DNA of 64,000 nucleotides from an uncultured Gemmatimonadales bacterium (GCA_963741945.1 CAVUKA010000003.1:1-64000), one strand, 5' to 3'. Positions 28,262 through 46,652 are shown, counted from the stretch's first letter. The notes: generated by a model from the sequence alone, not told the origin. Numbers and translations are program-made.

Positions 28262-29794
28262 ATGTCAGCGGACGATGGTGAGCTGAAGGGACCGGACCTG
28301 GAAGCGGGCGTGGCGGTGGAGGAGCTGCGGGACGGGGAGCCGCTGCTGGGGCACGCGGGGGGCGAGGCGGTGATGATGGTCCGGCGGGGCGACGAGGTGC
28401 TGGCCATCGGCGCCACGTGCACCCACTATGGCGGTCCGCTGGCGGAGGGGCTGGTCACGGGCGAGCGGGTGTATTGCCCGTGGCACCACGCGTGTTTCTC
28501 GCTGCGCAGCGGTGAGCCGCTGGAAGCGCCGGCGCTGAACCCCGTGGCCCGCTGGTCCGTGGAGGTGGCGGACGGCGTCGCCCGTGTCACCGGCCGGGAG
28601 GAGCGGGACCCGCTGGACAGCCGCGGCCGGAAGGCGGAGGGCCCGGAATCGGTGGTGATCGTGGGCGCGGGCGCGGCCGGTAGCGCCGCGGCGGAGATGC
28701 TGCGCCGGGAGGGATACGAGGGCCCGGTGACGCTGGTGGACCCCGAGGAGTGGGCGCCGTACGACCGGCCCAACCTGTCGAAGGACTACCTGGCCGGCGA
28801 GGCGCCGGAGGAGTGGATCCCGCTCCGGCCGGACGGCTTCTACGAAGAGCGCGGGATCGAGCGCGTGCGCGCGACCGCGGAGTCGCTGGACACGGGGCGG
28901 AAGGAGCTGCGCCTGTCCGACGGGCGCACGCTGCGCTACGGCGCGCTCCTGCTGGCCACGGGCGCGCGGCCGCGTCGCCTGGACGTGCCGGGCGCGGAGC
29001 TGCCCCACGTGCACACGCTCCGCTCGCTGGACGACTGCCGGCGGATCATCGAGGACGCGGAGAACGCGGAGCGGGCGGTGGTGATCGGCGCCAGCTTCAT
29101 CGGGATGGAGACCGCGGCGTCGCTCCGCCACCGGGGGCTCGACGTGGCGGTCGTGGCCATGGACCCGGTCCCGTTCGCGGGCGCGCTGGGGAAGGCCGTG
29201 GGCGAGTACCTGCGGGGCGTGCACGAGGACCACGGCGTGCGCTTCCACCTGGGGCGCACGGTGGACGCCATCGAGGAGGGGACGGTCCGGCTGGACGACG
29301 GCACGGAGCTGCCCGCGGACCTGGTGCTGGTGGGGATCGGCGTGGCGCCGGACACGGCACTGGCGGAAGCCGCCGGGCTGGACGTGGACAACGGCGTCGT
29401 CGTGGACGAGATGATGCGCGCCAGCGCGGACGGCGTGTTCGCCGCGGGCGACATCGCCCGCTTCCCCGACCCGCGCACGGGGCAGCGCATCCGCGTGGAG
29501 CACTGGGTGCACGCGCAGCGGACGGGGCAGGCGGCGGCGAGGAGCATGCTGGGCGTGGGCGAGGGCTACCACGCGCCGCCGTTCTTCTGGACCCGGCAGT
29601 TCGACGCCGGGCTGACGTACGTGGGCCACGCCCGCGACTGGGACGACGAGCGGATCGAGGGGGACCTGGCGAGCGGCGATGCCGTGGTGCGGCTGCTCCG
29701 CGACGGCCGGGAGCTGGCGGTGATCGCGGTGGGCCGGGACGCGGAGAGCCTTGCGGCGGAGGTGGGGATGCAGACGGAGGCCCGGGGCCGGTAG
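28262..29794 (+). CDS. Rieske [2Fe-2S] + FAD/NAD(P)H oxidoreductase fusion (AIF/ferredoxin reductase-like)
   Basis: CTHYG...CPWHH, GAGAAG, YDRPNLSK, LLATG, GASFIGME, FAAGDIA, RVEHW, PFFWT. Confidence 0.93.
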   Translation: MSADDGELKGPDLEAGVAVEELRDGEPLLGHAGGEAVMMVRRGDEVLAIGATCTHYGGPLAEGLVTGERVYCPWHHACFSLRSGEPLEAPALNPVARWSVEVADGVARVTGREERDPLDSRGRKAEGPESVVIVGAGAAGSAAAEMLRREGYEGPVTLVDPEEWAPYDRPNLSKDYLAGEAPEEWIPLRPDGFYEERGIERVRATAESLDTGRKELRLSDGRTLRYGALLLATGARPRRLDVPGAELPHVHTLRSLDDCRRIIEDAENAERAVVIGASFIGMETAASLRHRGLDVAVVAMDPVPFAGALGKAVGEYLRGVHEDHGVRFHLGRTVDAIEEGTVRLDDGTELPADLVLVGIGVAPDTALAEAAGLDVDNGVVVDEMMRASADGVFAAGDIARFPDPRTGQRIRVEHWVHAQRTGQAAARSMLGVGEGYHAPPFFWTRQFDAGLTYVGHARDWDDERIEGDLASGDAVVRLLRDGRELAVIAVGRDAESLAAEVGMQTEARGR

Positions 29795-30392: not shown

Positions 30393-31355
30393 TCAGTGGC
30401 TCCCGAGCCACTCCAGCACGGTCCGGTCGAACGCTTCCGGCCGCTCGATCATGCTGAGGTGCCCGGCGTCGTCGATCTCCTCGAGCGTGGCGTTCGGGAT
30501 CCGCTCGGCCCCCTCCTCGAACACGCGCTCCGGGAAGCCGGGGTGGAGGTACGGATTCGGGATCAGGCCGTCGTCCTCGCCGTACACGATGAGCGTGGGC
30601 TGCTCGATCCGATCGAGGTACGGCGTCGTGGGCTCGTCCAGCATGGCGCCGACGCTCTTCACCACCGCGTCGGCGAACAGGTCGAACTCATCGGTCTTCG
30701 CGAGCCTCACCCGCTCCTCGACCATCCACTCGAGGCGGTCGTGCCAGTCGTTGAAGTTGAGCGCCAGGTTGCGACGGATGGCATCCTCGGGTGTCTTCCG
30801 GATCGCCTCGATGCTGTAGACGCCGCGCAGCCACTTCCCTTCTCCCGGCAGGAAGGACTCGATCCCCGCCGGGTCCACCAGCACGAGCCGGTCCACCGCT
30901 TCAGGATACTGGAGGGCGGTGATCATGGCGATCTGCCCGCCCATGGACTGGCCGACCAGCGTGACGTGCTCGAGGCCGAGCTCGTCGATCAGGTCGCGGA
31001 TGGTGGCCGCCTGGAAGCTGAGGGAGTAGTCGTACTCGGCGCTCTTCTCCGAGCGGCCGTAGCCCGGGAGGTCGATGGCGATGACACGGTAATGCTCCGC
31101 GAGCGCCGGGATGTTGTAGCGCCAGAACCCCAGGTTGGAGGCGAGGCCGTGGATCAGGATGAGCGTCTGCGGCCCGGTGCCCACGTCCACGTACGCGACC
31201 GTCGGATCGTCGAGGGCGTAGCGGACGGGGAAGCCGTAGTCGAGCTCCGAGAAGGGGAGCGGGGCGGCGTCGCGGTACTCGAACCCGCCGATGCACCCGG
31301 TGAGCGCGGCGAGGGCGGCCAGCGCGAAGAACGCGCGTGTCTTGGGCGTGCTCAT
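30393..31355 (-). CDS. Lipoprotein alpha/beta hydrolase (esterase/lipase-like)
   Basis: Lipobox LTGC, LIHGL, DLPGYG, GQSMGG, GEDDGLI, AGH; TGATG overlap with the upstream gene. Confidence 0.92.
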   Translation of the reverse strand: MSTPKTRAFFALAALAALTGCIGGFEYRDAAPLPFSELDYGFPVRYALDDPTVAYVDVGTGPQTLILIHGLASNLGFWRYNIPALAEHYRVIAIDLPGYGRSEKSAEYDYSLSFQAATIRDLIDELGLEHVTLVGQSMGGQIAMITALQYPEAVDRLVLVDPAGIESFLPGEGKWLRGVYSIEAIRKTPEDAIRRNLALNFNDWHDRLEWMVEERVRLAKTDEFDLFADAVVKSVGAMLDEPTTPYLDRIEQPTLIVYGEDDGLIPNPYLHPGFPERVFEEGAERIPNATLEEIDDAGHLSMIERPEAFDRTVLEWLGSH

Positions 31356-32923
31356 CAGAACATCAGCCAGCTGAGGGTGAAGAAGGAGACCCACGGGTTC
31401 CGGGGCCGTGCGCCGGGCACCGTCACACCCGGTGCGTCGTAGAAGTCGCCCAGCATCAGGTACGCGGTGGAGAAGCCGGCGGTGAGGAAAACACCGATGT
31501 TGTACTTCGCTTCGAAGTTCACCTCGGTCCCCATGTAGTTGCCGCCCCCCGTGGGCTGCGTGTTGGAGATCGCCGAAGCCACGCCGACTTTCGTGTTGAG
31601 CCGGTTCGGGATCCAGTCCCGGGCCACGTTCACCGCCCCGCCCGTCACGCCGAAGCCCATGTTGGAGATGTCGTGCACGGCGGAGTAGTAGCGGTTCACC
31701 ACCTGCGGGTCCGGGAAGAGGAGGAACGCACGGTGGGAGCTGTAGATCCCCACGGGAGAGCCCCAGACGTTGCCCGTGATGACGCTGCTCACCCTGCCAT
31801 CGCTGACGCCGTTGCCATCGCCGGTGGTGGCAATGAGCTCGGCCCACGCCTTGTCGTTCACCGTCGCGCCGTAGCGGTAGGCCAGCGACGCGTTGGCGGC
31901 CACGCCCAGGATGTCGGCGCCGTGGACGAAGTCGCCGGCGGCGAGCGTGTCCACCACGCCCACGTTGGCGATGGCGAAGGCGTCCGCCCACCAGCGACCG
32001 GTGGCGAACTCGCGGTTCCACGCCGCGCGGCCGCCGATCCAGCCGATGTCGGCGTGGTAGCGGCCGTCGATGTTCAGGGTGGTGGCGCCGTTGTAGCCGG
32101 GGAGGAGGCTGGTGAGCCCCTGCCCCAGCACGGAAATCCCGCCGGCGCCCTCCGCCCTGTCCCGGAGGTACCAGGCGTCGAGGCCGAGCTCGAGGTGCGG
32201 CGAGACGCGGGAGTCCACGTCGCCCATGAGGAGGATGACGTCGTCATCGCGGGCGATGAGGTTCTCCCACAACTGGTAAGCGCCCACGCGTCCGCGTACA
32301 CCCGGCCGCAGCGACCCGAAGACGTTCACGCCCACGGCGTTGGTGCCCCAGAACGCGAGCTTGTAGCCGCTGGTCTGGGCGGTGGTGAGCGTGATGTTGT
32401 GCGGGTCGTACGTGTTGTCGTACAGCCGCTGCATCCCGATCACCGCGTTCCACGGCGCGTTCTTCGGGTGCAGGTCCACGTTGGCCATCAGCGTCTGGAG
32501 ATTGACCTGCGCGACGTTGATGGAGCCGCCCCGGTTCCCGCCCACGCCGTACGCCTGGTCGCCCCAGGTGTAGTCGATCTTGAACATGAGCCGGAACGTG
32601 GCGAGCCCGTCCAGGATGGCCGGGCGATAGATCAGGTAGGGGACGAAGCGCTGCTCCACGTACTGCGCCGTCCGGGCCACTGTCTCGGTGGAGTTGGGCC
32701 CGAACAATCGCCCGATCACCTGCCCCTGCAGGAGGTCGTTGGTGGGCGTCACGTTGGAAGCCGTGGCGCGGGTGAATGAGTAGCCGATGAACGTCCACTC
32801 CTTCGGAACCGAATCCCTCGCCGCCGCGACCGTGTCCATGGCCGCGTGCAGCCCCGTGATCTGCGCGCCCGCTCCCGTTGCGCAGCCCAGCGCGAGCGCT
32901 GCGGCCGTCATCACCCGTCTCAT
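31355..32923 (-). CDS. Putative outer-membrane beta-barrel protein of unknown function
   Basis: Signal peptide, amphipathic aromatic-rich strands, C-terminal ...FFTLSWLMF. Confidence 0.75.
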   Translation of the reverse strand: MRRVMTAAALALGCATGAGAQITGLHAAMDTVAAARDSVPKEWTFIGYSFTRATASNVTPTNDLLQGQVIGRLFGPNSTETVARTAQYVEQRFVPYLIYRPAILDGLATFRLMFKIDYTWGDQAYGVGGNRGGSINVAQVNLQTLMANVDLHPKNAPWNAVIGMQRLYDNTYDPHNITLTTAQTSGYKLAFWGTNAVGVNVFGSLRPGVRGRVGAYQLWENLIARDDDVILLMGDVDSRVSPHLELGLDAWYLRDRAEGAGGISVLGQGLTSLLPGYNGATTLNIDGRYHADIGWIGGRAAWNREFATGRWWADAFAIANVGVVDTLAAGDFVHGADILGVAANASLAYRYGATVNDKAWAELIATTGDGNGVSDGRVSSVITGNVWGSPVGIYSSHRAFLLFPDPQVVNRYYSAVHDISNMGFGVTGGAVNVARDWIPNRLNTKVGVASAISNTQPTGGGNYMGTEVNFEAKYNIGVFLTAGFSTAYLMLGDFYDAPGVTVPGARPRNPWVSFFTLSWLMF

Positions 32924-32993: not shown

Positions 32994-33506
32994 TCAGTTC
33001 CTGCGATCGTAGTTCTGGGTCCAGTACGGGCCGGTGGGATTCCCGCCGACCGTGGTGCTGCCGAAACCGCCGGAGACGGTGGGCGGATTCACGCCCGCGA
33101 GCGCCGGCTCCACCTGGATGACCTCATACTTCATCGTGTTGCCGCTCACCTGGAAGATCCCCTCGGACGTCACGGCCGTGGGGGTGGCCTGATTCGCCGT
33201 GATCGACCGGACCTGCCCCTCCGGCTGCGTGCCGGCCACGTAGGTGCCCGTGAGGGTGATCGGCTGAGCCGTGCCGCCATAATACTGGACCACCGTGTAC
33301 GTTCCGTTCTCGTTGAACGTGGCGATGATGCTGTCCGTGAAGAACGGGCTCGCGGCCAGACCCGGCGCCACGTCGGCGCCCTTGGAGACCCACGTGCCCA
33401 CCAGTTCGTCCACCTGGTTCTCGTTGCCCGTGGAGTCCTCGCTCCCGCACGCCGCCACACCGAGGCCGGCCACCACCAGCAACGCCAGAATTGCCTTCTT
33501 CCTCAT
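32994..33506 (-). CDS. Lipoprotein, beta-rich (lipocalin-like)
   Basis: Lipobox VAAC, LVGTW motif, TFNENGTY; GGAGG RBS. Confidence 0.85.
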   Translation of the reverse strand: MRKKAILALLVVAGLGVAACGSEDSTGNENQVDELVGTWVSKGADVAPGLAASPFFTDSIIATFNENGTYTVVQYYGGTAQPITLTGTYVAGTQPEGQVRSITANQATPTAVTSEGIFQVSGNTMKYEVIQVEPALAGVNPPTVSGGFGSTTVGGNPTGPYWTQNYDRRN

Positions 33507-33561: not shown

Positions 33562-33990
33562 TCACGTCTTTCGTGGCATGACCACCGACTCCCCCTCCGC
33601 CACCACCTTCCCGTCCTGGTTCACGCAGCGCGTAGCCAGCGTGACCCGGTTCTTCTCCCGGTCCAGCGCCGTGACCTCCGCGCGCGCGGTCACCGTGTCG
33701 CCGAACATCACCGGCGCCGTGAACCGGAGGCTCTGCGAGACGTAGATGACGCCGGGCCCCGGCAGCTTCATCCCGATCACCGTGGAGATGAACGCAGCCG
33801 TGAGGATCCCGTGGGCGATGCGCTGGCCGAAGCGCGACTGCGCCGCGGCCACCGCGTCCACGTGGACGGGGTTGAAGTCGCCCGTGATCCCGGCGAACCC
33901 GTACACGTCGCTCTCCGAGACCGTCTTCGTGAACTCCGCCGCCTGCCCCACCTCCAGCTCGCCGATGGTGAGGCCGTTCATCCGATCCAT
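33562..33990 (-). CDS. MaoC/PhaJ-family (R)-specific enoyl-CoA hydratase
   Basis: FAGITGDFNPVHVD hydratase motif, RIAHG, LPGPG, QSLRFTAPV. Confidence 0.92.
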   Translation of the reverse strand: MDRMNGLTIGELEVGQAAEFTKTVSESDVYGFAGITGDFNPVHVDAVAAAQSRFGQRIAHGILTAAFISTVIGMKLPGPGVIYVSQSLRFTAPVMFGDTVTARAEVTALDREKNRVTLATRCVNQDGKVVAEGESVVMPRKT

Positions 33991-33992
33991 GC

Positions 33993-35528
33993 TCACCCCC
34001 TTCCTGCGTCCGCGCGCGCCCGCTCGCGCAACGCCTTCTTCAGCACCTTGCCGCTGTCCCCGCGGGGCAGCTCGTCCAGGAACTCCACCTGCTTCGGCAT
34101 CTTGTACTTCGCCAGCTGACCCGCGCAGTACTCGACCACCTCTTCGGCGGTGAGCGACGACCCGGGCTCCACCACCACGTACGCCCGCCCGACCTCGCCC
34201 CACTTCGCGTCCGGCACCCCGATCACCGCCACTTCGCGGATGGCGGGGTGCGTGCGGAGGAATTGCTCCACCTCGGCCGGGTAGACGTTCTCCCCGCCGC
34301 TCTTGTACATGTCCTTCTTCCGGTCCACGACGTAGAAGAAGCCCTCGGCGTCGCGGCGGACCAGGTCGCCGGTGTGGAACCAGCCGTCGCGGATGGCGTC
34401 GGCGGTGGCTTCCGGGTTCCGCCAGTAGCCGGGCGTGCAGACGGGGCCGCGGAGCACCAGCTCGCCCACCCGGTCGTCGCCCAGCGGACGGTCGTCGTCA
34501 TCCACGACGCGGGCGTCGACGTAGAAGTTGGGGAAGCCGATGGAGCCGATCTTCCGCTCGGCGTGCTCCTCGTTCAGGCTGAACACGTTGGGCCCGAACT
34601 CCGTGAGACCGTAGCCCTGGCGGATCGGGACGCCCCGGCCGTGCCAGAGCCGGATCAGCTCCAGCGGCATCGGCTCGCCCCCCACGATGGCGTAGCGCAC
34701 GCGGGCGAAGTCCGTGGCGTCGAACTTGGGCGAGCGGCGCAGCATCTCCATGATCGTGGGGAGCCCGAAGAGGATGGTGACGCCCTCGTCGTCCACCAGC
34801 TCCAGGACCCGGTCCGCGTCGAACTTCGGCAGCAGGATCAGCTTCCCGCCCCGGTGCAGGAACGGCGTGGTGAGGACGTTCCAGCCGCCCGTGTGGAAGA
34901 ACGGCGTGTACGTCAGCGTGACGTCGCTCTGCACCAGGTTCAGCCGGAGCGTGGTGTTCACGCTGTTCCAGAAGAGCATGCCGTTCGTGATGAGCGCGCC
35001 CTTCGGCTTGCCCGTGGTGCCGGACGTGTAGAGCAGCATGCACGGCGTGTCGAAGTCGCCGGGCACCGGCACGGGCTCCGCCGGCAGCGTCTCGTCGGCC
35101 ACGCTCGCGGCCCAGCCGCCGTCGCCTTCGAACGGGAGCCGGCGGGACGGGAGCGCGGCGTCGGCGATGGCGGCCACCACGCCGTCGTACTGGCGCTGGT
35201 GGATCAGCGCGGCGGGCTCCGCGTCGGCGAGGATCCACTCCAGCTCCCGGGGCGCGAGCCGATAGTTCAGCGGCAGGAGGATGGCGCCGAGCTTCTGACA
35301 GGCGAAGAGGAGCAGCACGTACTCCGGCTCGTTCATGGACAGCACGGCCAGCCGGTCCCCCTCGCCCACGCCGAGCTCGTCCGCCAGGAAGCGCGCGCCG
35401 CGGTCGATCATCCGGCGGCACTGGGCGTACGTGAAGCGCCGGCCCGTGGCGTCATCCTGGAGCGCGACGGCGTCGGGGCTGTACTCCGCCCACTTCTCGA
35501 ACCAGTCCACTCGCGAATCGATCTCCAT
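33993..35528 (-). CDS. Acyl-CoA synthetase (AMP-forming, fatty-acid-CoA ligase family)
   Basis: YTSGTTGKPKG, GYGLTE, GWFHTGD, DRKKDMYKSGGENVYPAEVE, GKVLK. Confidence 0.95.
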   Translation of the reverse strand: MEIDSRVDWFEKWAEYSPDAVALQDDATGRRFTYAQCRRMIDRGARFLADELGVGEGDRLAVLSMNEPEYVLLLFACQKLGAILLPLNYRLAPRELEWILADAEPAALIHQRQYDGVVAAIADAALPSRRLPFEGDGGWAASVADETLPAEPVPVPGDFDTPCMLLYTSGTTGKPKGALITNGMLFWNSVNTTLRLNLVQSDVTLTYTPFFHTGGWNVLTTPFLHRGGKLILLPKFDADRVLELVDDEGVTILFGLPTIMEMLRRSPKFDATDFARVRYAIVGGEPMPLELIRLWHGRGVPIRQGYGLTEFGPNVFSLNEEHAERKIGSIGFPNFYVDARVVDDDDRPLGDDRVGELVLRGPVCTPGYWRNPEATADAIRDGWFHTGDLVRRDAEGFFYVVDRKKDMYKSGGENVYPAEVEQFLRTHPAIREVAVIGVPDAKWGEVGRAYVVVEPGSSLTAEEVVEYCAGQLAKYKMPKQVEFLDELPRGDSGKVLKKALRERARADAGRG

Positions 35529-35540: not shown

Positions 35541-37088
35541 CTACGACGACGCGCCGGGCGACGACGGGCCGGCCGACCCGGTCGCCCCGGCCGCGACCAC
35601 GGCGGGCGCGCCCTCACCCGAGCCGACGCCCGCCCCGCCCGGCCCCACCACCAGCCCGATCCCCCCCACCACCAGCGACGCCGCAATGGCGCACGTGGCG
35701 GGCACGGCCGGGTTGTTGTGGTACATGGTCACCTGGCCGTAGTACATGCCGAAGTGCACCACGATGGCCGTGGCCGAAGCCGCCCAGATCCACCCTTTCG
35801 CCATGCTCTTCGTGAAGATGCCGAGGAGGATCGGGACGAACGTGGCCGCGAACAGGCCGTAGACGCCGTTCTGCGCGAAGATCGCCACGCTGAGCGACGG
35901 CGCCACGATCTGCTTCCACGACAGCGCCACGGTCACGGGCGCCAGCGCGATGAGGAACCAGCGGGCGTAGACCAGCGAGCGCGCTTTCCACGCCGGGTCG
36001 TCGCGCCGGCCGCCGCCGGTGAGGTGGCGGAGGAAGTCGTTGGCGAAGATGGAGCTGAGCGCCACCAGGATCGCTTCCATGGTGGAGAAGCCCGCCGCCA
36101 GGAGCCCGAGCACCACCACGGCGCGGGTGAACGAGCTGAACTCCGTCACCATGTACGTGGCCATGACGGTGTCGGGGGGGATCGTTTCGCCCGCGAACGT
36201 GAGGCGCGCGAACAGTCCCGTGACGAGCACCGCGAAGAAGAGCCCGGCCACCACCATGGCCGTGGCCAGGTAGCGGTTCACGTCCTTCTCGCTCCGCAGG
36301 TAGAGCGACTTGGAGATGATGTGCGGCTGCAGGATGATGGCGAGCCCCACCACGAAATTGGCCACGAACACTTCGAACCAGTCGCGGAAGAGCAGGCTGG
36401 TGGGGTTCACCGGGTCCGCGTAGTGCGGGCCGACGGCGGCGAGGCGCTGGAAGAAGCCGCTGATGCCGTGGTCGAAGAATTTCGCCCCGGACCCGAGGAA
36501 GAGCAGCGCCACCACGATCATGATGCCGGCCTGCATGGTGTTCGTGAGCACGTGCGTGCCCGCGCCGCCGAGCAGGATGTACGTGAACGTGAACGCCACC
36601 ACCGAGAGGAGCGCCACCCAGGTGGGGAGCGCCAGCGCCTGCGCCAGGACGAGCGTGAGGCCCACCACGATCAACACCAGGAAGCTGACCTGGAGCAGGC
36701 TGAGCACGGCGAACCAGACGCTCAGCCGCTTCTCGCCGAAGCGGTCCCCGATCCACTGCGGCACCGTGAGCACGCGCGTCCGGTCCCCGATGCGGCGGAA
36801 GCTCTTCGAGAAGACCACGAGGCCGAGGAACATCCCGAGCGGGGCGGCCACCGCGTAGCCGAGCACGCCAGACCAGCCGTACAGGTAGATGAGGCCCGGG
36901 TTGATGACGAACGTGGCCGCACTGGTCAGGCTCGCCGCCAGGCTCAGGCCCACGGCCACCGGGCTCACCTGACGCGACCCCACCGAATAGCTCTCCATGG
37001 TGGACGCGCGCCGCGCGCGCCACGCGATGCCGGCCACGAAGACCCCGTAGACCGCAACCAGCACCCACGACCAGAACGATTCGCTCAT
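35541..37088 (-). CDS. Sodium:solute symporter (SSF) family protein
   Basis: Multi-TM; SLTSAATFVINPG, TVPQWIGDRF, LLAAGFST; ATGA overlap with the FabH-like gene. Confidence 0.9.
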   Translation of the reverse strand: MSESFWSWVLVAVYGVFVAGIAWRARRASTMESYSVGSRQVSPVAVGLSLAASLTSAATFVINPGLIYLYGWSGVLGYAVAAPLGMFLGLVVFSKSFRRIGDRTRVLTVPQWIGDRFGEKRLSVWFAVLSLLQVSFLVLIVVGLTLVLAQALALPTWVALLSVVAFTFTYILLGGAGTHVLTNTMQAGIMIVVALLFLGSGAKFFDHGISGFFQRLAAVGPHYADPVNPTSLLFRDWFEVFVANFVVGLAIILQPHIISKSLYLRSEKDVNRYLATAMVVAGLFFAVLVTGLFARLTFAGETIPPDTVMATYMVTEFSSFTRAVVVLGLLAAGFSTMEAILVALSSIFANDFLRHLTGGGRRDDPAWKARSLVYARWFLIALAPVTVALSWKQIVAPSLSVAIFAQNGVYGLFAATFVPILLGIFTKSMAKGWIWAASATAIVVHFGMYYGQVTMYHNNPAVPATCAIAASLVVGGIGLVVGPGGAGVGSGEGAPAVVAAGATGSAGPSSPGASS

Positions 37089-38125
37089 GTGTCGTAGCCC
37101 CATTCCAGGGCCAGGGCGGCCATGGCCATTCCGCCGCCCGAGCCCATGAGCACCACCAGGTCGCCCGCCTTCAGCAGGTGGCGGTCGGCGGCATCCGCCA
37201 TGGCCATGGGGATGCACGCGCTCCCCGTGTACGCGAACCGGTCCATCACGTTGTGCGAACGGTCCCGCGGCACGCCCAGGATGTCCAGCGTCTCGTTGAT
37301 GCTGTTGATGTTGATCTGCGTGAAGAAGTAGCGGGCGACGTCGCCCGGCTCTTTCCCGATCTTCCCCAGCACGCTCCGGATCAGACGCGGCCAGTGCGTC
37401 GGGTTCGTCTCCGCCGGGAACTTCTTCGCGAAGCGCAGCAGGTGGTCCTTCCGCTCCAGCGCTTCCGGCGTCACGGGCATGAACGTGCCGCCGGCGTAGA
37501 TGCCCATGTAGTCGTGGAACGAGCCCTCGGCGTACAGCTCACTGGCCAGGATACCCGCGCCGGGGCGCGCGCCCCGCTCCCGGTCGGAGGCGGAGCCCAC
37601 GGCGCTCACCACGGCCGCGCCGGCGCCATCGGCGAACAGCGTGGCGAGCTTGTAGTCGTCGAAATCGAGGTACTTGCTCATGCCATACGCCCCGGCAATG
37701 AGCACGTGCCGGTACGATGCGTCCGCCACGATGTACTTCCACGCCAGGTCCGCGATGGTGACGAAACCCGCGCACGCCGTGTTCACATCGAACGTGCCCG
37801 CGTTGACGGCGCCCAGCTTGTGCTGCACCACCGAGGCCGTGGACGGCGAGATGTAGTCCGGCGTGTCCGTGGCCACCACCAGCAGATCCAGCTCCGCCGG
37901 CCCGATCCCCGCTTCCTCCAGCGCGTCCCGCGCCGCCGGCACCACCAGGTCCGACGTGGCCTGGTCCGCCGCCATGAAATGCCGCGTCTCGATGTTCCGG
38001 TTCGCCCGCAGGAACGCGTCCACGTCCATCCCGTAGCGCGCGTTGAACTCCACGTTCGGGATCGCCCGACCCGGGGCGCACAGGCCCGTCCCCGTCAACA
38101 CCGCGCGTCTCGTGCTCTCGCTCAT
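37085..38125 (-). CDS. FabH/KAS III-fold enzyme with atypical active site (Cys kept; His->Thr, Asn->Tyr)
   Basis: ATDTPDY, NTACAGF, LFADGAGA, FFTQIN (for VPHQAN), FAYTGSAC (for HGNTSAAS), GSGGG. Confidence 0.9.
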   Translation of the reverse strand: MSESTRRAVLTGTGLCAPGRAIPNVEFNARYGMDVDAFLRANRNIETRHFMAADQATSDLVVPAARDALEEAGIGPAELDLLVVATDTPDYISPSTASVVQHKLGAVNAGTFDVNTACAGFVTIADLAWKYIVADASYRHVLIAGAYGMSKYLDFDDYKLATLFADGAGAAVVSAVGSASDRERGARPGAGILASELYAEGSFHDYMGIYAGGTFMPVTPEALERKDHLLRFAKKFPAETNPTHWPRLIRSVLGKIGKEPGDVARYFFTQININSINETLDILGVPRDRSHNVMDRFAYTGSACIPMAMADAADRHLLKAGDLVVLMGSGGGMAMAALALEWGYDT

Positions 38126-38132: not shown

Positions 38133-38741
38133 TCACTCCGCATCCGGACGGAGCCGCAGCCCGTCATGGATGAACTTCCTCAGGCTCTCCAGCGCTTCCT
38201 CCGGCGGCTCACGGTCGTCCCACACCACCCACCGCATCCCCATGAAGTGCGCCGCCCCCATCAGCGCGTACGCCACCGTCGCCGGATCCAGGCGACGGAT
38301 CTCACCCGCCTCCATCGCCGCGCCCAGCCCCTTCGCGTACCCCTCCGCCAGCCGCTCGTAGTACCAGCGGAAAAGATCCGGGTCGATGAACTGGCTCTCG
38401 AACACGATCCGGTACAGGTCCCGGTGCTCCGACGCGAAGCGCAGGAAGCTCCGCAGACCCGCCTCCTCCACCGCCAACCGCCCCACCACGCCCGCCACGT
38501 CACGGGCAATGGCGAGACGGAGGCGATGGCTCAGAGAGCGCACCAGCTCGCTGAATACCTCGTCCTTGCCGTGGAAGTAGAGGTAGAACGTGCCCTGCCC
38601 CACCCCGGCCTGCGTCGTGATCCCCGCCACCGACGTGGCGTGGTAGCCGGCGCTCCCGAACAGCGCCTCCGCGGCGTCCAGCAGCTTCTGCCGCGTCGCT
38701 TCGCCGCGCGCCGTCCGGGGTTTCCGTGAGGCCCTGATCAT
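38133..38741 (-). CDS. TetR/AcrR-family transcriptional regulator
   Basis: TRQKLLDAAEALF...TSVAGITTQAGVGQGTFYLYFHGK. Confidence 0.95.
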   Translation of the reverse strand: MIRASRKPRTARGEATRQKLLDAAEALFGSAGYHATSVAGITTQAGVGQGTFYLYFHGKDEVFSELVRSLSHRLRLAIARDVAGVVGRLAVEEAGLRSFLRFASEHRDLYRIVFESQFIDPDLFRWYYERLAEGYAKGLGAAMEAGEIRRLDPATVAYALMGAAHFMGMRWVVWDDREPPEEALESLRKFIHDGLRLRPDAE

Positions 38742-38781
38742 GGGCTCTGGCCCTCCATTCGTGGCAGACCGGGCACCGCGT

Positions 38782-38808
38782 ACCTGACACCTGAATCGGG
38801 TGTCAGGT
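38782..38808. promoter_or_regulatory. Palindromic operator, probably bound by the adjacent TetR
   Basis: ACCTGACACC-N7-GGTGTCAGGT with perfect 10-bp arms, 40 bp upstream of tetR. Confidence 0.75.
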
Positions 38809-38810
38809 TA

Positions 38811-38839
38811 ATGGTGCGCGGTACCCCGGACGATGTCAA
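38811..38839 (-). promoter_or_regulatory. sigma70-type promoter of the tetR operon
   Basis: Minus-strand TTGACA (38839-38834), 17-bp spacer, CACCAT (38816-38811). The predicted start falls inside the palindrome. Confidence 0.6.
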
Positions 38840-39006
38840 TGCCCGCGCCGGCGGAAGCGGTGCCGTGATGCGCTGCCGGGGCGGGAGGAAGGCGAGCCGC
38901 CCGAGGGCACTTTTGACCCGGTGGGGGCGGGCGGGTACTCTCCGGAATGCGACACATCCGACTCGCCGCCGAGGATCACCACCGCAAGGAACTGGACGCG
39001 ACGACG

Positions 39007-40095
39007 ATGCCGAGACGCCCATCCGGGGGAAGCCGATCCCCTGCCCTTTCGGTGCTGGCGGGCCCCGACGCCCTCCGGATCCTGCGCGATCGCGGTCTGC
39101 GCGCGGAAGACGTGGACGTGGTGCCGGGTGCGGGCGGCGGCCCGAAGTGGCTGGTGCTGGAGGCGCTGGACCGCTTTCTCTTCGGCGAGTTCCTGCAGCA
39201 ACCGCGCGAGCGCCCGCTGCACCTGATCGGCTCCTCGATCGGCGCGTGGCGGCTGGCGTGCCTGGCGCAGCGGGACCCGGTGGCCGCCATCGGCCGGCTG
39301 AAGGATGCGTACCTGGGGCAGGGTTACAACGAGAAGCCGACGCCTGCCGAAGTGAGCGAGGAGAGCACCCGCATCCTGGACCGGCTCCTCGGGGAGCATG
39401 GGGCGGAGGAGATCCTGTCGCACCCATGGGCGCGGCTTCACGTCATCACGGCGGAGTGCCGGGGCGCCGCGGCGAGCGAGTGGCTGCCGATGCTGGGGCT
39501 GGCCATGGCCACGGCCGCCGCGGCGAACATGGTCAGCCGCCGGGGGCTCGCGCTCCAGATCCGACGCGTGATCTTCCACACTGCGGGGGACGCCAGCCCT
39601 TTCCGCGCGCTGCGGGACTTCCCCACTCGCCACGTCCGCCTCACCCGGGGCAATCTGCGCCCGGCGCTTCTCGCGTCGGGCTCCATTCCCCTCGTGCTGG
39701 AGGGCGTGCGGATCCCGGGCGCGGAGCGGACGGTGTACCGCGACGGCGGGATCGTGGATTACCACCCCGACTTCGAATTCGGGCCGGGCGAAGGGCTGGT
39801 CCTCTATCCCCATTTCTTCCGCCACATCGTGCCGGGCTGGTTCGACAAGGCGCTGCCCTGGCGACGCGGCCACCCGCGCAACTTCCGGCGCGCCGTGATC
39901 CTCGCCCCCAGCGCGGATTTCGTGGCGGGTCTGCCGGGCGGGGCGATCCCGGACCGCAAGGACTTCTACCGCATGAGCGAGCCCGAGCGCCTCGCCGCCT
40001 GGAACGCGGCCGTGGACGCCGGCGAAGCGCTGGCCGAGGAGCTCAGGACGCTGATCGAGATGGGCGACATCGCGGGCGCGGCCCGGCCACTCTGA
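39007..40095 (+). CDS. Patatin-like phospholipase/esterase domain protein
   Basis: GAGGGPKW glycine loop, GSSIG nucleophile, LASGSIP, DGG. Confidence 0.85.
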   Translation: MPRRPSGGSRSPALSVLAGPDALRILRDRGLRAEDVDVVPGAGGGPKWLVLEALDRFLFGEFLQQPRERPLHLIGSSIGAWRLACLAQRDPVAAIGRLKDAYLGQGYNEKPTPAEVSEESTRILDRLLGEHGAEEILSHPWARLHVITAECRGAAASEWLPMLGLAMATAAAANMVSRRGLALQIRRVIFHTAGDASPFRALRDFPTRHVRLTRGNLRPALLASGSIPLVLEGVRIPGAERTVYRDGGIVDYHPDFEFGPGEGLVLYPHFFRHIVPGWFDKALPWRRGHPRNFRRAVILAPSADFVAGLPGGAIPDRKDFYRMSEPERLAAWNAAVDAGEALAEELRTLIEMGDIAGAARPL

Positions 40096-40220: not shown

Positions 40221-41237
40221 ATGAAAGTGGCAGCGATCCTGAGCCTCATTGCCGGCGTGGGGGCCGTTGCGGGACTGTTCCTGCTCGCCGACCCGGGCCA
40301 CATCTGGTCGCTGATCCAGGACGTCGCCATCTGGCTCGTCCCGCTGGCGATTGCGCATTTCATCTTCATCCTGCTCACCACGCTGGCGTGGCGCAGCCTG
40401 CTGGTCGCCCAGGAGATGGACCGGCCGTTCCACGAGCTGTTCCGCATGCGCTGGATCGGCGACGCGCTTTCCGCGATGACGCCGTTCGGCGTGGCGGACG
40501 GGGAGGCGGTGAGGGCGTACCTGCAGGCGAAGGAGACGGAGCTGGATGGTCCGCGAGTCGCCGCGGTGGTGATCGTCGAGCTGACGGCACGTCTGCTCTC
40601 GCTGGTGCTCTTCATCCTGGTGGGGATGATCCTGCTGGCGCTGCACGGCGGCAAGCACGTCTGGCTCACCACTGGCGGCGCGACGGCACTGCTCATCGTG
40701 GTGCTGGGTGCCTACGTGTACGGGCAGCGTCACGACTGGCTGCACAGGCTTGCGCGGCTGATCGCGCGGAGGAGCAAGAGCGAGCGGTGGCAGGAGCTGG
40801 CCGGCGACACCGATGCCGTGAACGAGCATCTCGAGCCCATCTACCGGGAGCACGGCGCGTTCATCCGCTGCACCGCCTGGCACACGTCGGCCTGGGTGTT
40901 CTCCGCCACGGAGATGCTCTTCCTCTTCTGGATCCTGGGCGAGCCAGTGGGCCCGGTGGAAGCGCTCATCTTCGAGGCCATCGGGCAGGCGGCGAAGAAT
41001 GCAGGCTTCTTTCTCCCCGCCGGGCTGGGCGCGCAGGAGGGCGGCTACTACCTGGCTGCCGAAGCCATCGGGAAGAGCGCGTCCATCGGGCTGGCCGTGG
41101 CCATCATCAAGCGCATCCGCGACTTCATCTTCGGTGTCCCGGCGCTGCTGCTCTGGCAGCAGCACGCGAGGAAGGAGAAGAAGGAGAAGGAGAAGGAGGA
41201 GAAGGAAAGCGCATCGGACCGGGGCGCCACGGCCTGA
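40221..41237 (+). CDS. Lysylphosphatidylglycerol-synthase TM / flippase-like (HpnL-like) membrane protein
   Basis: Multi-[30 protein letters not shown]. Confidence 0.8.
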
Positions 41238-41249
41238 GCTTGCCGGCGC

Positions 41250-42600
41250 TCAGCCGATTCCGTACTTCTTCAGCTTCTCGTAGAGCGTGCGCTCGCCGAT
41301 CCCCAGCCGCTCGGCCGCGCGCCTGCGGTTCCCGCCCACCTCCGCCAGCGCCCGCACGATGGCGTCCCGCTCGATCTCCTCCATGGTCCGGGCGACGCCG
41401 CGCCGCGCCGCCGCCCGCGGGCGCAGTGGATGCCGGTGGGCGGTGGGTGCTGATGCGCAGGTCGTCGCCCCGCAGGACGTCGCCCTCGGCCAGGATCGCG
41501 GCGCGCTCCAGCGCGTTGCCGAGCTCGCGGACGTTGCCGGGCCAGCTCGCCTGCTGGATCTTCTCGCGCGCCAGCGGATCGAGGCGGAGCAGCGGACGAC
41601 CCACGTCGGCGGCGATGCGTGCGAGGAGCGTCTCGGCGAGGGGGAGGAGGTCGCGGCGTCGGTCGCGGAGCGGCGGGAGGTGGATGGGGAAGACGGCGAG
41701 GCGGTGGTAGAGGTCCTCGCGGAAGTCGCCGCTGGCCACGCGCGCTTCCAGGTCACGGTTGGTGGCCGCGATCCAGCGCACATCGACCTCGATGGTGCGC
41801 GTGCCGCCGAGCCGCTCGAAACGCTGCTCCTGGAGCACGCGCAGCAGCTTTGCCTGGAACTCCGGCTTGAGCTCGGCGATCTCGTCGAGGAAGAGGGAGC
41901 CGCCGTCCGCAAGCTCGAGGCGGCCCCGGCGGGTCTGGCTCGCACCGGTGAATGCGCCCTTCTCGTGGCCGAAGATCTCGCTCTCCATGAGCGTTTCGGA
42001 GATGGCCGCGCAGTTGATGGGGATGAAGGGCGCGTCGGCGCGGGGGCTGCGCTCGTGGATGATGCGGGCGGCCAGCTCCTTCCCCGTCCCGCTCTCGCCG
42101 AGGAGGAGCACCGTGGAGCTGGTGGCCGCCACTTTCTCCAGCGCGCGGACCACCGGCTGCATGACGGGGTCACCGTAGGTGAGTGGCGGGGTGGTCTGGG
42201 TGGTGCGCCGCGCTTCGTCGCGGGTGAGGAGGCGGCGCCGCTCGAGCGCGCGCGAGACCAGCAGCCGCAGCTCACCCGGTGACCCGACCGGCTTCTGCAG
42301 GTAGTCGAACGCGCCCAGCTTCATGGCTTCCACGGCCGTGTCCACGGTGCCGTGGGCCGTGAGCACGATGACTTCCATCTCCGGCACGTCCGACTTGGCT
42401 TTGCGCAGCAGGTCCACGCCGTCCAGCGCGCCGGGCATGCGCAGGTCCGTGATCATGAGGTCGAACGCCCGATCGTTCAGCAGCCGCATCGCTTCCATGC
42501 CATCCGCGGCCATCCGCGTCTCGTGGCCATCGGAGGCGAGCGCGTCGGACAGGAACTCGCGAATCCCATCCTCGTCGTCCACGATCAGGATCGCGCCCAT
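41250..42600 (-). CDS. Sigma54-dependent response regulator (NtrC/ZraR/AtoC-like); frameshift near 41420 separates the Fis-HTH
   Basis: ILIVDDE receiver, [52 protein letters not shown] in another frame. Confidence 0.9.
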
Positions 42601-42601
42601 G

Positions 42602-43942
42602 CTAGCCGCCCCCGGGGATCTCGATGCGGAAGCGCGCACCGCCACCCGCCCGGTTCGAGGCGGCGATCGTGCCGCCGTGCATCTCCACGATCCGACGCGC
42701 CACGGGCAGCCCCAGCCCCGTGCCGGTGGTGCGCGTGGTGAAGAACGGGTCGAACACGCGCGATTCCTCCTCCGGCGTGAGTCCCGCGCCCCGGTCTTCC
42801 ACGCTGATGCAGAGGCGGCCCCTGGCCTCGGCCACCGTGACTTCCGGCGCCGCACCGACGGGGGAAGCCTGGACGGCGTTGCGCAGCAGGTTCACGAGCA
42901 CCTGTCGCAGGCGAGGCTCATCGAGCGGCCACGCGGCGGGCGCGCCCTCGTCGTGCACCACCACGCCATTCCCGGGCGCGGCTTCCTCCGCGGAGGCCCG
43001 GGCGAGGGCCACGGGGTCGGTGGGCCGCAGATCGAGGGGCCCCGAGCGTGCGAAGTCCAGGAGGTCCGACGTGAGCGCTTCCAGGCGAGTGGCTTCGGTC
43101 ACCACGCGGTCCGCTTTCCGCCGGGCCGGACTGTCCTCCGGCAGCTGCTCCAGCAGCAGCTGCCCGTGCCCTTTCAGCGACGCCAGCGGGTTGCGGATCT
43201 CGTGGGCCAGCACGGCCGACATCTCGCCGAGCTCGCTCAGCCGCCGCTGCTCTTCCATTCGTCGCTCCGCCGCCTCGAACCGCTGCGACAGTCGCCAGAA
43301 CACGAGCGCCGCCAGCATCAGGACGGCCGCGCCCACCACCGACACCGCCAGCGTGCGCGACGCCCGGACCACCATCTCCTCCGCCACCACGGGCTCGAAC
43401 TCCAGCACGAGCACGGGCCGCTGGGCCACGGGGGCGGGCGGCGGCGGGACGAAGTAGCTGCGGACGCGGTCATCCACGCGCTGGATCACGGGCCCCTCCT
43501 GCGGCGCCGGCAGCGCGAACGCGGTGTCCGCCGGAACGCCGCTCTTCGCGATCATCTCGCCCGAGGGGCTCAGGACCCCGGCGAAGCGGAGGCCGCTCTC
43601 CCGCCGCTCGGCCAGCGTGCTGTCGAGCACCGCCTGGATCACGGCCACACTCTCGCGGCCGGGCGTCTGCTCGCCACCACGCCCCTCCTGCCCTCCGCGG
43701 CTGCCGTGGCGACGGCCGTCGTGCTGACGCTCCCAGGCGCGGAAGGCGCCGCTCCGCACGGCCGACTCCAGGATCTGCGCCTGCCCCCGGATCAGGGAGT
43801 CCGAAGCGTTGCGGACGCTGCGGTTGTTGGCCCACGCGCTCCCGATCAGCGCCACGCCCAGGGCGAGCGTGGTGATGAGCCAGCCCCAGCGGGCGCGGCG
43901 GCCATGCCGAGCAACACCGGGGTCCGCCTTCAGGGGCTGCAT
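42602..43942 (-). CDS. Membrane sensor histidine kinase
   Basis: Two TMs, [36 protein letters not shown]. Confidence 0.93.
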
Positions 43943-43982
43943 CGTTGCTTGCTCCGTTCCATGGTCCCGCGCCGGTGCCCCG

Positions 43983-45401
43983 TCAGGACGGGAGTCCGGC
44001 CGCCGGATCCAGGTTGCCGACGTAGTAGTCCAGCAGCTTCTGCTGGAACAGGAGCGAGTAGCGCGCGTTCACGCTCGCGCTGCTCGCCGACACCAGCTCC
44101 GCGCGCGACTGCGTCACCTCGAAGATGGTCGCGAGCCCGGCGTTGTAGCGCTCCTGCACGGCGGCGAGCGCCTGGCCCGCCGCCTTCACGCGCGCCTCCG
44201 CAGCATTCATCTGCTCTACCGCCGCCTTCCGGTCAAGGACGGCGCGCCGGACCTCGAGGGCGATCTGCTGCCGGAGGTCGGTGAGGGCGAGGCTGGCGTT
44301 GTCGGCCTGGATCCTGGCCCGCTCGGTGGCCCGCTGGGTGCCGAGGCGGTCGAAGAGGGGGAAGGAGAGCGACAGCCCCAGGGACCCGCTCTTCTTGTCC
44401 CGCAGCTGGTCGGCGAGGCCCAGGTTCGTGGCGTTCGTGTAGGAGCTGCCGTACCCCGCCGACAGGCTCACCGACGGCCACCACGTCGCCCTGGCGGCGC
44501 TCACTCCGGCCTCGGCGGAGCCGACCGCCCTCTGCGCCGCGTCCAGGTCCGGCCGGGAGGCGTACGCAGCCCGGAGCAGCGCGTTGACGTCCAGCTCCGT
44601 GCCCACGTCGACACTGTCCGGCATGGCCGGCGCGGCGAACGTGTAGCTGCCCACGGGGTCGAGCTGGAGCACCTGGATGAGCGCCACCTTCCGCAGCTCG
44701 GTGTTGCGGCGCGCGTCGACCAGCGCCGATTTCGCGGCGGCCACCTGGGCCTGTTGCTGGTAGAGGTCCACGATCGGGCGCGTGCCCGCGTCGGCCAGCG
44801 TGCGGACCTGCTTCAGCAGCTGCTCCTGCGCCAGGAGGTTCTCGTCCGCCACGCGCACCTGCTCCTTGGCGGCGATGAGGTCCAGGTAGCCGGAGATCAC
44901 CGAGAAGACCACGGTCTGCTCGGCGCGCTGCGTGTCCAGCTCCGCCGCGGCCTCGTCCAGGTTGGCGGCCTTCAGGATGTTGATGTTCCGGAATCCGTCG
45001 AACAGCGTGATGCTGCTCGAGACCCGGGCGGAGCCGCTCCCCGTGTTGCCGCTCAGGAGCTGTCCCTCGTTCGTGTTGAACGTGCGGCCGAAGTCCTGGT
45101 TCCAGCCGCCGGAAAGCCGGAGGTCCGGGGCGAACTGCATGCGGGCGTCCTGCACCGAGAGCTGCGCCAGGTCCTCCGCGTTGCGCGCGCGGTGGATGGT
45201 GGTGCTCTGGCGCAGCGCCATGTCCACCGCCCGATCGAACGTGATCACCGTCGAGTCAGGGCCCGGCTCCGCGGCCGGAGCGGTCTGCGCAGCCCCGGGG
45301 CCGGCCGTGGCCAGTGCGGCCGCCAGGCCCAGCGTCGCAAGGAAAGCCGGGCGGAGTGCCCCGCGGGCGCAGATCCAATCATGCATCGTGTACTGCATCA
45401 T
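43983..45401 (-). CDS. TolC-family outer-membrane efflux protein
   Basis: Signal peptide, two OEP repeats, RPDL, ERYNAG. Confidence 0.92.
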   Translation of the reverse strand: MMQYTMHDWICARGALRPAFLATLGLAAALATAGPGAAQTAPAAEPGPDSTVITFDRAVDMALRQSTTIHRARNAEDLAQLSVQDARMQFAPDLRLSGGWNQDFGRTFNTNEGQLLSGNTGSGSARVSSSITLFDGFRNINILKAANLDEAAAELDTQRAEQTVVFSVISGYLDLIAAKEQVRVADENLLAQEQLLKQVRTLADAGTRPIVDLYQQQAQVAAAKSALVDARRNTELRKVALIQVLQLDPVGSYTFAAPAMPDSVDVGTELDVNALLRAAYASRPDLDAAQRAVGSAEAGVSAARATWWPSVSLSAGYGSSYTNATNLGLADQLRDKKSGSLGLSLSFPLFDRLGTQRATERARIQADNASLALTDLRQQIALEVRRAVLDRKAAVEQMNAAEARVKAAGQALAAVQERYNAGLATIFEVTQSRAELVSASSASVNARYSLLFQQKLLDYYVGNLDPAAGLPS

Positions 45402-45438
45402 ATCCCTCCATTGGAGGCCTCGCGGCCCCGTCCAGAAA

Positions 45439-46652
<1,214 letters not shown>

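Follow-up and report, generated by a model that had tools for sequence, protein, structure and literature searches.

We have examined a 64,000-nucleotide stretch of DNA (hereafter the window; G+C content 71%) from an uncultured Gemmatimonadales bacterium (GCA_963741945.1 CAVUKA010000003.1:1-64000) and focus here on one of its genes, located on the minus strand at 37085..38125, that encodes a protein with the fold of ketoacyl-acyl carrier protein (ACP) synthase III (KAS III). The gene is the second of eight minus-strand genes that form an operon between 38741 and 30393 and are spaced by -4 to +70 nucleotides. Its product, referred to below as the KAS-like protein, is read from an intact open reading frame (ORF) of 346 amino acids whose start at 38125 matches the N-termini of its closest homologues. 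It carries the Pfam domains ACP_syn_III (1.4e-18) and ACP_syn_III_C (1.3e-20), but scores below every curated NCBIfam model of FabH (195 vs 249 bits for NF006829, 164.3 vs 292.1 bits for TIGR00747). Pfam found neither Thiolase_N nor Thiolase_C in it at E <= 0.01, nor the HMG_CoA_synt domain, and its NCBIfam score for hydroxymethylglutaryl-CoA (HMG-CoA) synthase was 38.9 against a cut-off of 244.

That the active site of this protein is altered had been claimed in an original prediction made from the window, which held that the nucleophile motif NTACAG is intact while FFTQIN and FAYTGSAC replace the segments that hold His and Asn in FabH. Translation and alignment with FabH bear out each of these motifs. 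Residue equivalences were taken from an alignment with the FabH of the annotated E. coli K-12 genome (EcFabH) and from HMMER alignments to solved FabHs, in which tq-in lies beneath hq-an and aytgsac beneath gntsaas. The nucleophile Cys112 of EcFabH corresponds to Cys118 (codon at 37772-37774, minus strand as for all codons given here), whereas His244 is replaced by Thr269 (37319-37321) and Asn274 by Tyr299 (37229-37231). Three further positions differ: Thr81 has become Asp87 (37865-37867), Phe304 has become Ser329 (37139-37141) and Arg249 has become Asn274. Gln245 and Asn247 are retained as Gln270 and Asn272, and the glycine-rich oxyanion loop is also common to the two proteins; both oxyanion-hole positions are kept, namely the backbone of Cys118 and Gly330, which aligns with EcFabH Gly305 beside Gly306. 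The fold and Pfam domains are shared with the solved FabHs of E. coli (1hn9/1ebl), B. subtilis (FabHA, 8vd9) and A. aeolicus (2ebd), although the segment bounded by residues 176 and 235 is extended relative to EcFabH. An AlphaFold2 model built from the alignment of 34 sequences described below has a pLDDT of 80.3 and a pTM of 0.84, and its best Foldseek matches are FabHs, BioZ and PqsD (TM 0.74-0.86, 23-30% identity), with FabH at E 4e-29 and TM 0.75-0.85. The active-site geometry discussed here is that given by alignment.

In FabH, Arg249 is the basic residue on which ACP docks. According to the accessible part of one study (PMC10054515), the acyl group of EcFabH is carried on Cys112, the oxyanion hole is formed by the amides of Cys112 and Gly306, and His244 and Asn274 stabilise the malonyl-derived enolate when malonyl-ACP is decarboxylated. 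Judged by its residues, it is safe to say that the KAS-like enzyme lacks the residues with which FabH decarboxylates malonyl-ACP and the basic one on which ACP docks, and equally safe that Cys118 should still be acylatable by acyl-CoA. The decarboxylative condensation of FabH should be beyond it.

The replacement of His and Asn by Thr and Tyr is a family signature and neither chance nor decay, since it is invariant in close homologues, in distant homologues and in an unbiased sample of genomes. A search for close homologues gave 8000 word-sharing candidates, 7450 of them at E <= 1e-10, and the best 120 are 61-92% identical to the query. When 33 homologues (63-92% identity) were aligned with the query, Cys118, Thr269, Gln270, Asn272 and the run Tyr299-Thr300-Gly301-Ser302-Ala303 were invariant, as were Asp87, Tyr147 and Trp245-Pro246-Arg247. 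A distant search of 1.84 billion representatives (clustered at 50% identity) gave 12156 matches at E <= 0.001 with no filter applied. From the best 150 we kept the 114 that are 300-420 amino acids long, dropped 36 for their length and added the query. Among these 115 FabH-like rows the triad reads Cys-His-Asn in 89, Cys-Thr-Tyr in 17 and Ser-His-Asn in two, the other seven being singletons. Cys-Thr-Tyr co-varies with Asp87, where Cys-His-Asn proteins have Ser, Thr, Val or Ile, with Tyr147 (Glu or Asp there), with Trp245 and with Ser329 (Phe there). In a FastTree phylogeny of the 115 rows, all 16 leaves that read Asp-Cys-Thr-Tyr-Ser (D-C-T-Y-S) fall inside one clade of 21 leaves with a support of 0.805, which rises to 0.983 once two more leaves are included; the remaining five leaves of the clade are sequences that are variant or may be chimeric. 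All seven signature residues of this clade (Asp87, Cys118, Tyr147, Trp245, Thr269, Tyr299 and Ser329) are present in the query. No solved member of the clade was found in the PDB, the best match being 5e-40 by sequence and 7e-60 by family profile, and full-text literature searches, judged from titles and abstracts, returned no characterised member.

We further collected 161 KAS-like ORFs from 160 loci, 80 of them from species genomes and 80 from metagenomes. Thr269, Tyr299, Ser329, Tyr147 and Trp245 are invariant in all 161 ORFs; Cys118 is present in 160, the sole exception being truncated, and Asp87 in 159. As the metagenome loci were chosen by a pattern that includes YTGSA, the unbiased sample is that of the 80 genome loci, which were chosen by patterns without these motifs: 80 of their 81 ORFs read D-C-T-Y-S and the other is a truncated piece. 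Close and distant members of the clade thus never retain His or Asn, so that the refuting condition named in the original prediction, His and Asn kept in close homologues, did not come true. Its emphasis on an extra Cys does not hold, since position 304 is Cys in only 109 of the 161 ORFs (Ala in 25, Ser in 27) and lies outside the conserved site; His204 is variable too, being present in 123. The gene was also said to be intact and unlikely to be decaying, and this is upheld: it is under purifying selection, with dN/dS values of 0.13-0.32 against five orthologues (a sixth pair was saturated).

Judged by the names of the homologues, the carriers are metagenome-assembled genomes (MAGs) of Gemmatimonadota, Bacteroidota, Ignavibacteria, Bdellovibrionota and Myxococcota, together with complete Bdellovibrio genomes. 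The gene is accessory and patchy even within phyla: of the genomes sampled, 6 of 151 from its own phylum, the source genome included, and 7 of 101 from Bdellovibrionota carry it. Identities between KAS-like proteins of different phyla reach 60-80%, which suggests that the operon moves horizontally.

The operon in which the gene stands is not a fab cluster. Its first gene (38133..38741, minus strand as throughout the operon) encodes a TetR-family regulator of 202 amino acids (Pfam TetR_N 2.9e-15), whose stop codon lies 7 nucleotides before the start of the KAS-like gene. Downstream, the ATG of a Na+/solute symporter (SSS; 515 amino acids, 35541..37088; Pfam SSF 2.7e-37; TIGR00813 3.6e-34, below cut-off) overlaps the stop codon of the KAS-like gene in the sequence ATGA. 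An AMP-forming acyl-CoA ligase of 511 amino acids follows (33993..35528; Pfam AMP-binding 8.9e-86 and AMP-binding_C). Its closest solved relatives are the feruloyl-/fatty-acyl-CoA synthetase 8wev/8weu (E 1e-122) and FadD13 (2e-98), and it is predicted to be a regular CoA ligase; by eye it is ~45% identical to feruloyl-CoA synthetase, so that hydroxycinnamate stays as an alternative substrate. Directly 3' of the ligase stop codon starts the gene of a MaoC-like (R)-specific enoyl-CoA hydratase (142 amino acids, 33562..33990), which was recognised by tblastn, with 62% identity to the MaoC ORF of a related locus (L009; itself Pfam MaoC_dehydratas 4.7e-25), and by an NCBIfam enoyl-CoA hydratase domain (1.4e-40, below cut-off).

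The last three products look like cell-envelope proteins. A small lipoprotein of 170 amino acids (32994..33506) has a signal peptide with Cys, and its cluster relatives match Lipocalin_4 (5e-4, below cut-off) or DUF5004 (1.5e-5). It is followed by an outer-membrane beta-barrel candidate of 522 amino acids (31355..32923) with a signal peptide and a C-terminal Phe; Pfam gave no match for it, and its language-model neighbours include an 'alginate export domain' cluster in which PF13372 occurs in 17% of members, which we take as a lead only. The final gene encodes an exported alpha/beta-hydrolase lipoprotein of 320 amino acids (30393..31355; N-terminus ...LTGC), and its ATG overlaps the stop codon of the barrel gene by 1 nucleotide. 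Searches with 30393-31346, that is, without the first three residues, matched this hydrolase to 4f0j (6e-34), to HsaD/BphD (1e-28) and, in its N-terminal part only, to the poly(3-hydroxybutyrate) (PHB) depolymerase 8ynv (2e-23), while its NCBIfam matches to HsaD, PcaD and the short-chain-length polyhydroxyalkanoate (PHA) depolymerase NF050089 (8e-26) are all below cut-off.

A scan of the operon for promoters and terminators gave nothing above shuffled sequences. An imperfect inverted repeat at 38768-38822 (27-nucleotide arms, 78% complementary, with 1 nucleotide between them) lies 27 nucleotides upstream of the TetR start, within the 205-nucleotide divergent region that faces a patatin-like gene. 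We considered it as a TetR operator and rejected it, its core being absent from every related locus. The patatin-like phospholipase (38947-40095, plus strand) and a lysyl-phosphatidylglycerol-synthase transmembrane-region protein (40221-41237, plus strand) are divergent from the operon, and neither recurs in the 80 genome loci.

To see which neighbours are constant, we clustered the neighbouring ORFs of the 160 loci and named the families by Pfam and NCBIfam; many of the absences counted below fall at contig ends. The ligase is present in 129 of the 160 loci, a FabG/PhaB-like short-chain dehydrogenase/reductase (SDR) in 127 and one type of alpha/beta-hydrolase (type 1) in 108. The SSS symporter occurs in 63, at the same position as in the window, and transporters of the major facilitator superfamily in 12 others. 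Further recurrent families are MarR (57), a second type of alpha/beta-hydrolase (51), the lipoprotein (45, always accompanied by the barrel protein or a transporter) and the barrel (42). The MarR genes stand at the position of the regulator, where TetR was found in 4 of the 80 genome loci. MaoC is present in 12 loci, 11 recognised by clustering and one (L002) by tblastn, and it stands together with the SDR in a single locus (L113); 11 of the 12 MaoC loci, and the window, are without the SDR. Ten of the 160 loci contain a true acetyl-CoA C-acetyltransferase (TIGR01930, 443 bits vs a cut-off of 240). The closest solved relatives of the SDR are the NADH-dependent FabGs 4nbw/4nbu/4nbv and the (3R)-hydroxyacyl-CoA dehydrogenase of MFE-2 (2et6), at E ~1e-80, and the next best are acetoacetyl-CoA reductases (E ~1e-50). 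MaoC has the fold of (R)-specific hydratases, as found in PhaJ and MFE-2.

Three gene orders are typical: MarR-thiolase-SDR-KAS-SSS-ligase-lipoprotein-barrel-hydrolase; TetR/MarR-KAS-SSS-ligase-MaoC-lipoprotein-barrel-hydrolase, to which the window belongs; and, in Bdellovibrionota, hydrolase-hydrolase-SDR divergent from KAS-ligase. An exported hydrolase appears to be present in each type of locus. By a crude signal-peptide test, type 1 hydrolases carry an export signal in 45 of 57 loci with a transporter and in 0 of 61 others, and 50 of 52 type 2 hydrolases in Bdellovibrio-type loci look exported, compared with 2-6% of the KAS, ligase and SDR controls. A PDB comparison of two Bdellovibrio hydrolases gave nothing specific. 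Long forms of the protein were also found. P0275 (624 amino acids) is a natural fusion in which a complete D-C-T-Y clade domain, with Thr at the Ser329 position, is joined to a cytoplasmic alpha/beta-hydrolase. P0276 (684 amino acids; a cluster of 14 member sequences) is a KAS-ligase chimera without the Tyr299 region. It and P0146, another long fused form, appear to be chimeric or truncated gene calls and are usable only as evidence of adjacency.

Two side observations concern the neighbours of related loci. In eight loci (L004, L005, L006, L008, L017, L091, L094 and L099) a histidine ammonia-lyase gene, above the hutH cut-off, stands divergent upstream of the MarR-KAS operon (in L091 at 5804-7504, minus strand); L004, L008 and L017 are Bacteroidota MAGs, L005 and L006 Ignavibacteria MAGs, and the other three metagenomic. 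This conserved aromatic amino-acid lyase had suggested a hydroxycinnamate route, which we abandoned once the lyase proved to be a histidine ammonia-lyase. A TonB-dependent receptor lies nearby in 8 of the 160 loci, including L164 (14784-16940), L168 (3944-6427) and L154 (5-2221), and the 520-residue barrel is absent from these three, whose gene order was examined.

Elsewhere in the source genome there are two canonical Cys-His-Asn FabH paralogues (C8:98756-99721 and C1:1067710-1068693). Each search match contains one internal stop, although the translated open frames, of 339 and 359 codons, are intact, and both paralogues retain the equivalents of Arg249 and Phe304. About 900 nucleotides downstream of one of them lies a FabG-like SDR that is the best match in the genome (42% identity) to the SDR of the related loci. 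We rejected it as an orthologue because of its low identity and its FabH neighbourhood, and found no dedicated SDR in the genome.

Taken with these data, the predicted context of the KAS-like gene is CoA-dependent catabolism and not fatty-acid synthesis. A role as FabH is argued against by the Asn at the Arg249 position, by the FabH scores below cut-off and by the two canonical FabHs elsewhere. The genes of the operon are translationally coupled, the ligase is adjacent in 129 of the 160 loci, and one KAS-ligase chimera and one hydrolase-KAS fusion exist. It is safe to say that the KAS-like enzyme would act directly after the ligase. SDR and MaoC appear as alternative partners and both are specific for (R)-3-hydroxyacyl-CoA, which points to (R)-3-hydroxyacyl-CoA as the probable product of the KAS-like step. 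Since ten operons carry a true thiolase, the KAS-like enzyme is not simply the thiolase of the pathway. The layout is one of catabolic uptake, in which (R)-3-hydroxyacyl-CoA chemistry is surrounded by a ligand-type repressor, an importer, a barrel that resembles porins and an exported hydrolase. That the KAS-like protein acts on acyl-CoA without decarboxylation, as part of a catabolic operon, we consider very probable. The original prediction of a non-decarboxylating acyl-transfer or thiolytic enzyme fits this outcome, because the gene is intact, its homologues lack His and Asn, canonical FabHs exist elsewhere and the context is catabolic.

As to the reaction itself, we tentatively favour a specific ester thiolysis, that is, the CoA-dependent cleavage of oxoester bonds in oligo-(R)-3-hydroxyalkanoyl-CoA. 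On the observed fold, residue pattern, operon and neighbour statistics we infer the following scheme, in its substrate, its ester-thiolysis chemistry and the roles of its residues. The exported hydrolase would trim an external polyester or ester, most plausibly PHA fragments, and the resulting dimers and oligomers of hydroxy acids would be imported via the barrel, the lipoprotein and the symporter. The ligase would then activate the free carboxyl once, using ATP. In the oligo-(R)-3-hydroxyalkanoyl-CoA, Cys118 could attack the oxoester linkage while Tyr299 or Asp87 protonates the leaving alkoxide, and CoA would resolve the acyl-Cys, so that each unit might be released as (R)-3-hydroxyacyl-CoA with no further ATP. 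In the window this product would pass to the MaoC hydratase; most relatives would instead employ the PhaB-like SDR, plus thiolase. In a wider form of the reading, which we hold to be possible though doubtful, a thiolase-fold enzyme would convert oxoester into thioester bonds, and back, in oligomers of (R)-3-hydroxyalkanoates, either as a thiolytic depolymerase or, in reverse, as a PhaC-independent oligo- or polyester synthase.

Ester thiolysis is the reverse of the PhaC reaction, and both PhaC and PhaZ1 have the alpha/beta-hydrolase fold and not the thiolase fold. Cleavage of this kind would have a precedent in PhaZ1: CoA-dependent thiolysis of PHB ester bonds to 3-hydroxybutyryl-CoA is reported for that enzyme in the available portion of PMC3430594, citing Uchino 2007, and this release of 3-hydroxyacyl-CoA from an ester is the reaction that we propose for the KAS-like protein. 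The N-domain of class I/II PHA synthases (PhaC_N) was not found in the source genome (96.7% complete) or in 3 of 4 other carriers, and its absence from the source genome would fit a consumer of external polyester.

Several points weigh against ester thiolysis. The known ester-handling KAS III homologues CerJ and ChlB3 retain a His base, as far as the accessible text of PMC9573744 goes, and the Thr/Tyr pair has no precedent for ester chemistry. Asp87 aligns with the Glu in the GTES motif of HMG-CoA synthase, although hhalign gives this alignment a probability of only 39%, and an acid/base at Asp87 hints at carbon-acid (C-C) chemistry over acyl transfer. The hydrolase resembles the C-C hydrolases and lactonases HsaD/PcaD at least as well as it does PHA depolymerases. 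With feruloyl-CoA synthetase as the closest solved relative of the ligase, other classes of substrate may be handled. A cytoplasmic hydrolase, which could split oligomers hydrolytically, is also encoded in the Bdellovibrio-type loci and in the P0275 fusion. The confidence of the AlphaFold2 model is low at residues 201-216 and 229-234, within the family-specific insert (201-234). A literature search, judged from titles and abstracts, found no enzyme assay for any member of the clade.

The main rival is a thiolase-like retro-Claisen cleavage, in which a 3-oxoacyl-CoA supplied by the SDR would be attacked by Cys118 at its 3-oxo group and CoA would release the shortened acyl-CoA; the hydroxyls of Thr269 and Tyr299 would hydrogen-bond the leaving acetyl-CoA enolate in place of His and Asn, and Asp87 would protonate the carbanion. 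Members of the thiolase superfamily, to which the thiolases PhaA and FadA and the KAS-like protein all belong, normally carry out C-C chemistry, although the KAS-like protein is without the Cys-His-Cys set. An SDR resembling (3R)-hydroxyacyl-CoA dehydrogenase adjoins the gene in 127 of the 160 loci, with a canonical thiolase in only 10. Those ten operons, however, already have the true acetyl-CoA C-acetyltransferase near the SDR and the KAS-like gene, and in the window and 11 of the 12 MaoC loci, where MaoC replaces the SDR, a 'thiolase' would be left without the dehydrogenase that feeds it.

The alignment of Asp87 bears on retro-Claisen cleavage as well. The catalytic set of HMG-CoA synthase is Glu-Cys-His, its Glu being the base that acts on the carbon beside the thioester. 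In the comparison with a Bacteroidota profile of this enzyme, Asp87 falls on that Glu and Cys118 on the catalytic Cys, which is in favour of C-C cleavage, but the alignment is weak and N-terminal only (E 3e-4, at the probability given above), the C-terminal parts do not align significantly (E 0.26) and the His is absent from the KAS-like protein. The Gly-Phe-Gly of FabH is Gly-Ser-Gly in both proteins, and the string YTGS is common to them; we dropped the shared string as evidence of kinship in view of the C-terminal alignment. HMG-CoA synthase was not found in the source genome or in five carrier genomes; of 26 Bacteroidota genomes, one contained it. To our knowledge, all known members that form or cleave C-C bonds (thiolases, FabH, OleA and HMG-CoA synthase) retain His, which also counts against a retro-Claisen enzyme. 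We regard this reaction as somewhat unlikely. Ester thiolysis of oligomer-CoA is favoured over it because the KAS-like protein is constantly paired with the ligase, the partners that vary consume (R)-3-hydroxyacyl-CoA and ten operons have a thiolase of their own.

Less probable still is an acyltransferase in the manner of CerJ, ChlB3 and DpsC, or of an acyl-CoA:ACP transacylase, that would pass an acyl group scavenged by the ligase from Cys118 to ACP, a lipid or the hydroxyl or amine of a small molecule, and so salvage it into cell constituents. CerJ, ChlB3 and ChlB6 share with the KAS-like protein the KAS III fold and, by the available part of PMC9573744, are acyltransferases with altered triads that work through a Cys-acyl without decarboxylative condensation, which is the kind of chemistry proposed here; the half-reaction from acyl-CoA to Cys requires only Cys and a backbone oxyanion hole, as the accessible part of PMC10054515 has it. 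The comparison with CerJ and ChlB6 in the original prediction is nevertheless only a loose one: the triad of these enzymes and of ChlB3 is described in the same portion of PMC9573744 as Cys-His-Asp with an essential His, which the KAS-like protein lacks at that position. Nor are CerJ, DpsC, ChlB3 and ChlB6 among the best 60 of 79 family-profile matches in the PDB, which comprise FabH, BioZ, PqsD, CorB, OleA and PqsC. Their genes lie in antibiotic gene clusters, unlike the KAS-like gene. The adjoining patatin-like lipase and lysyl-phosphatidylglycerol-synthase genes are lipid-related, but such neighbours occur in 0 of the 80 genome loci; no ACP or acceptor-making gene is among the clusters found in at least 6 of the 160 loci, the ACP-docking position is Asn, and the recurrent partners (SDR, MaoC, thiolase, importers and ligand-type repressors) are catabolic.

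A biosynthetic enzyme, either a PhaC-independent synthase of oligo- or poly-(R)-3-hydroxyalkanoates or an OleA-like enzyme of non-decarboxylative head-to-head condensation in an Ole-like set, we consider quite improbable. The order thiolase-SDR-KAS does resemble phaA-phaB-phaC and MaoC equals PhaJ, the phaA-phaB products and PhaJ being the classical suppliers of monomers, and the missing PhaC_N could be read in the same way. The four recurrent families, KAS, ligase, SDR and alpha/beta-hydrolase, match OleABCD by family name, and OleA of X. campestris (3row/3s21), which has a KAS III-type fold and uses acyl-CoA without decarboxylation, is a detectable relative (family-profile E ~1e-21, with only residues 35-133 aligning well). 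OleA nevertheless retains Cys-His-Asn, together with a Glu from the partner subunit, whereas the KAS-like protein is without His and Asn; OleD is a reductase of the 3-beta-HSD type, whereas the SDR partner here is FabG-like; and the ligase is close to true CoA ligases and not obviously a beta-lactone synthetase. The SSS importer, porin-like barrel, exported hydrolase and TetR/MarR repressor form a layout for uptake and catabolism, and the patchy occurrence of the gene in its own phylum and in Bdellovibrionota also speaks against biosynthesis.

Finally, the reading as an ordinary FabH, or as a paralogue of FabH that is inactive or in decay, for which only the fold, the top structural matches and the database name 'ketoacyl-ACP synthase III' of the homologues would speak, is already contradicted by the conservation data (the invariant His/Asn replacement, the monophyletic clade and the low dN/dS), as well as by the scores under the FabH cut-offs, the two canonical FabHs and the conserved, non-fab operon, and has next to no probability left.

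Thousands of proteins of this kind are automatically annotated as 'ketoacyl-ACP synthase III', and at 50% identity clustering 17 of the 115 full-length FabH-like representatives closest to the query fall in the clade. If these enzymes perform non-decarboxylative CoA chemistry, a block of 'fatty-acid synthesis' annotation would be wrong, the thiolase/KAS III fold would gain a His-free catalytic solution, and a conserved uptake operon would gain a function, probably in the use of polyester or hydroxy-acid fragments, with relevance to the turnover of PHA carbon in soils and waters and to the degradation of bioplastics. Were the interconversion of oligomer ester and thioester bonds to be true, it would be a new type of reaction for the KAS III scaffold, with an Asp/Thr/Tyr/Ser pocket replacing His/Asn, and would represent a widespread and horizontally mobile route by which bacteria scavenge polyester.

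The remainder of the window contains several genes outside the operon. A 945-residue protein at 24432-27269 (minus strand) matches an M14 zinc-carboxypeptidase in its N-terminal part only, with ~700 residues without a Pfam match. It is followed at 27410-29794 (plus strand) by a long frame that combines a Rieske [2Fe-2S] domain, a pyridine-nucleotide-disulphide oxidoreductase and Reductase_C, and whose start is a predicted one, the first ~300 residues being uncertain. On the other side, 41125-49062 (minus strand) encodes a histidine kinase, a sigma-54-dependent response regulator and a set of efflux proteins (the outer-membrane factor OEP, a MacB-like permease and a HlyD-type adaptor), beyond which lies a DAHP synthase gene (49082-50164, plus strand).

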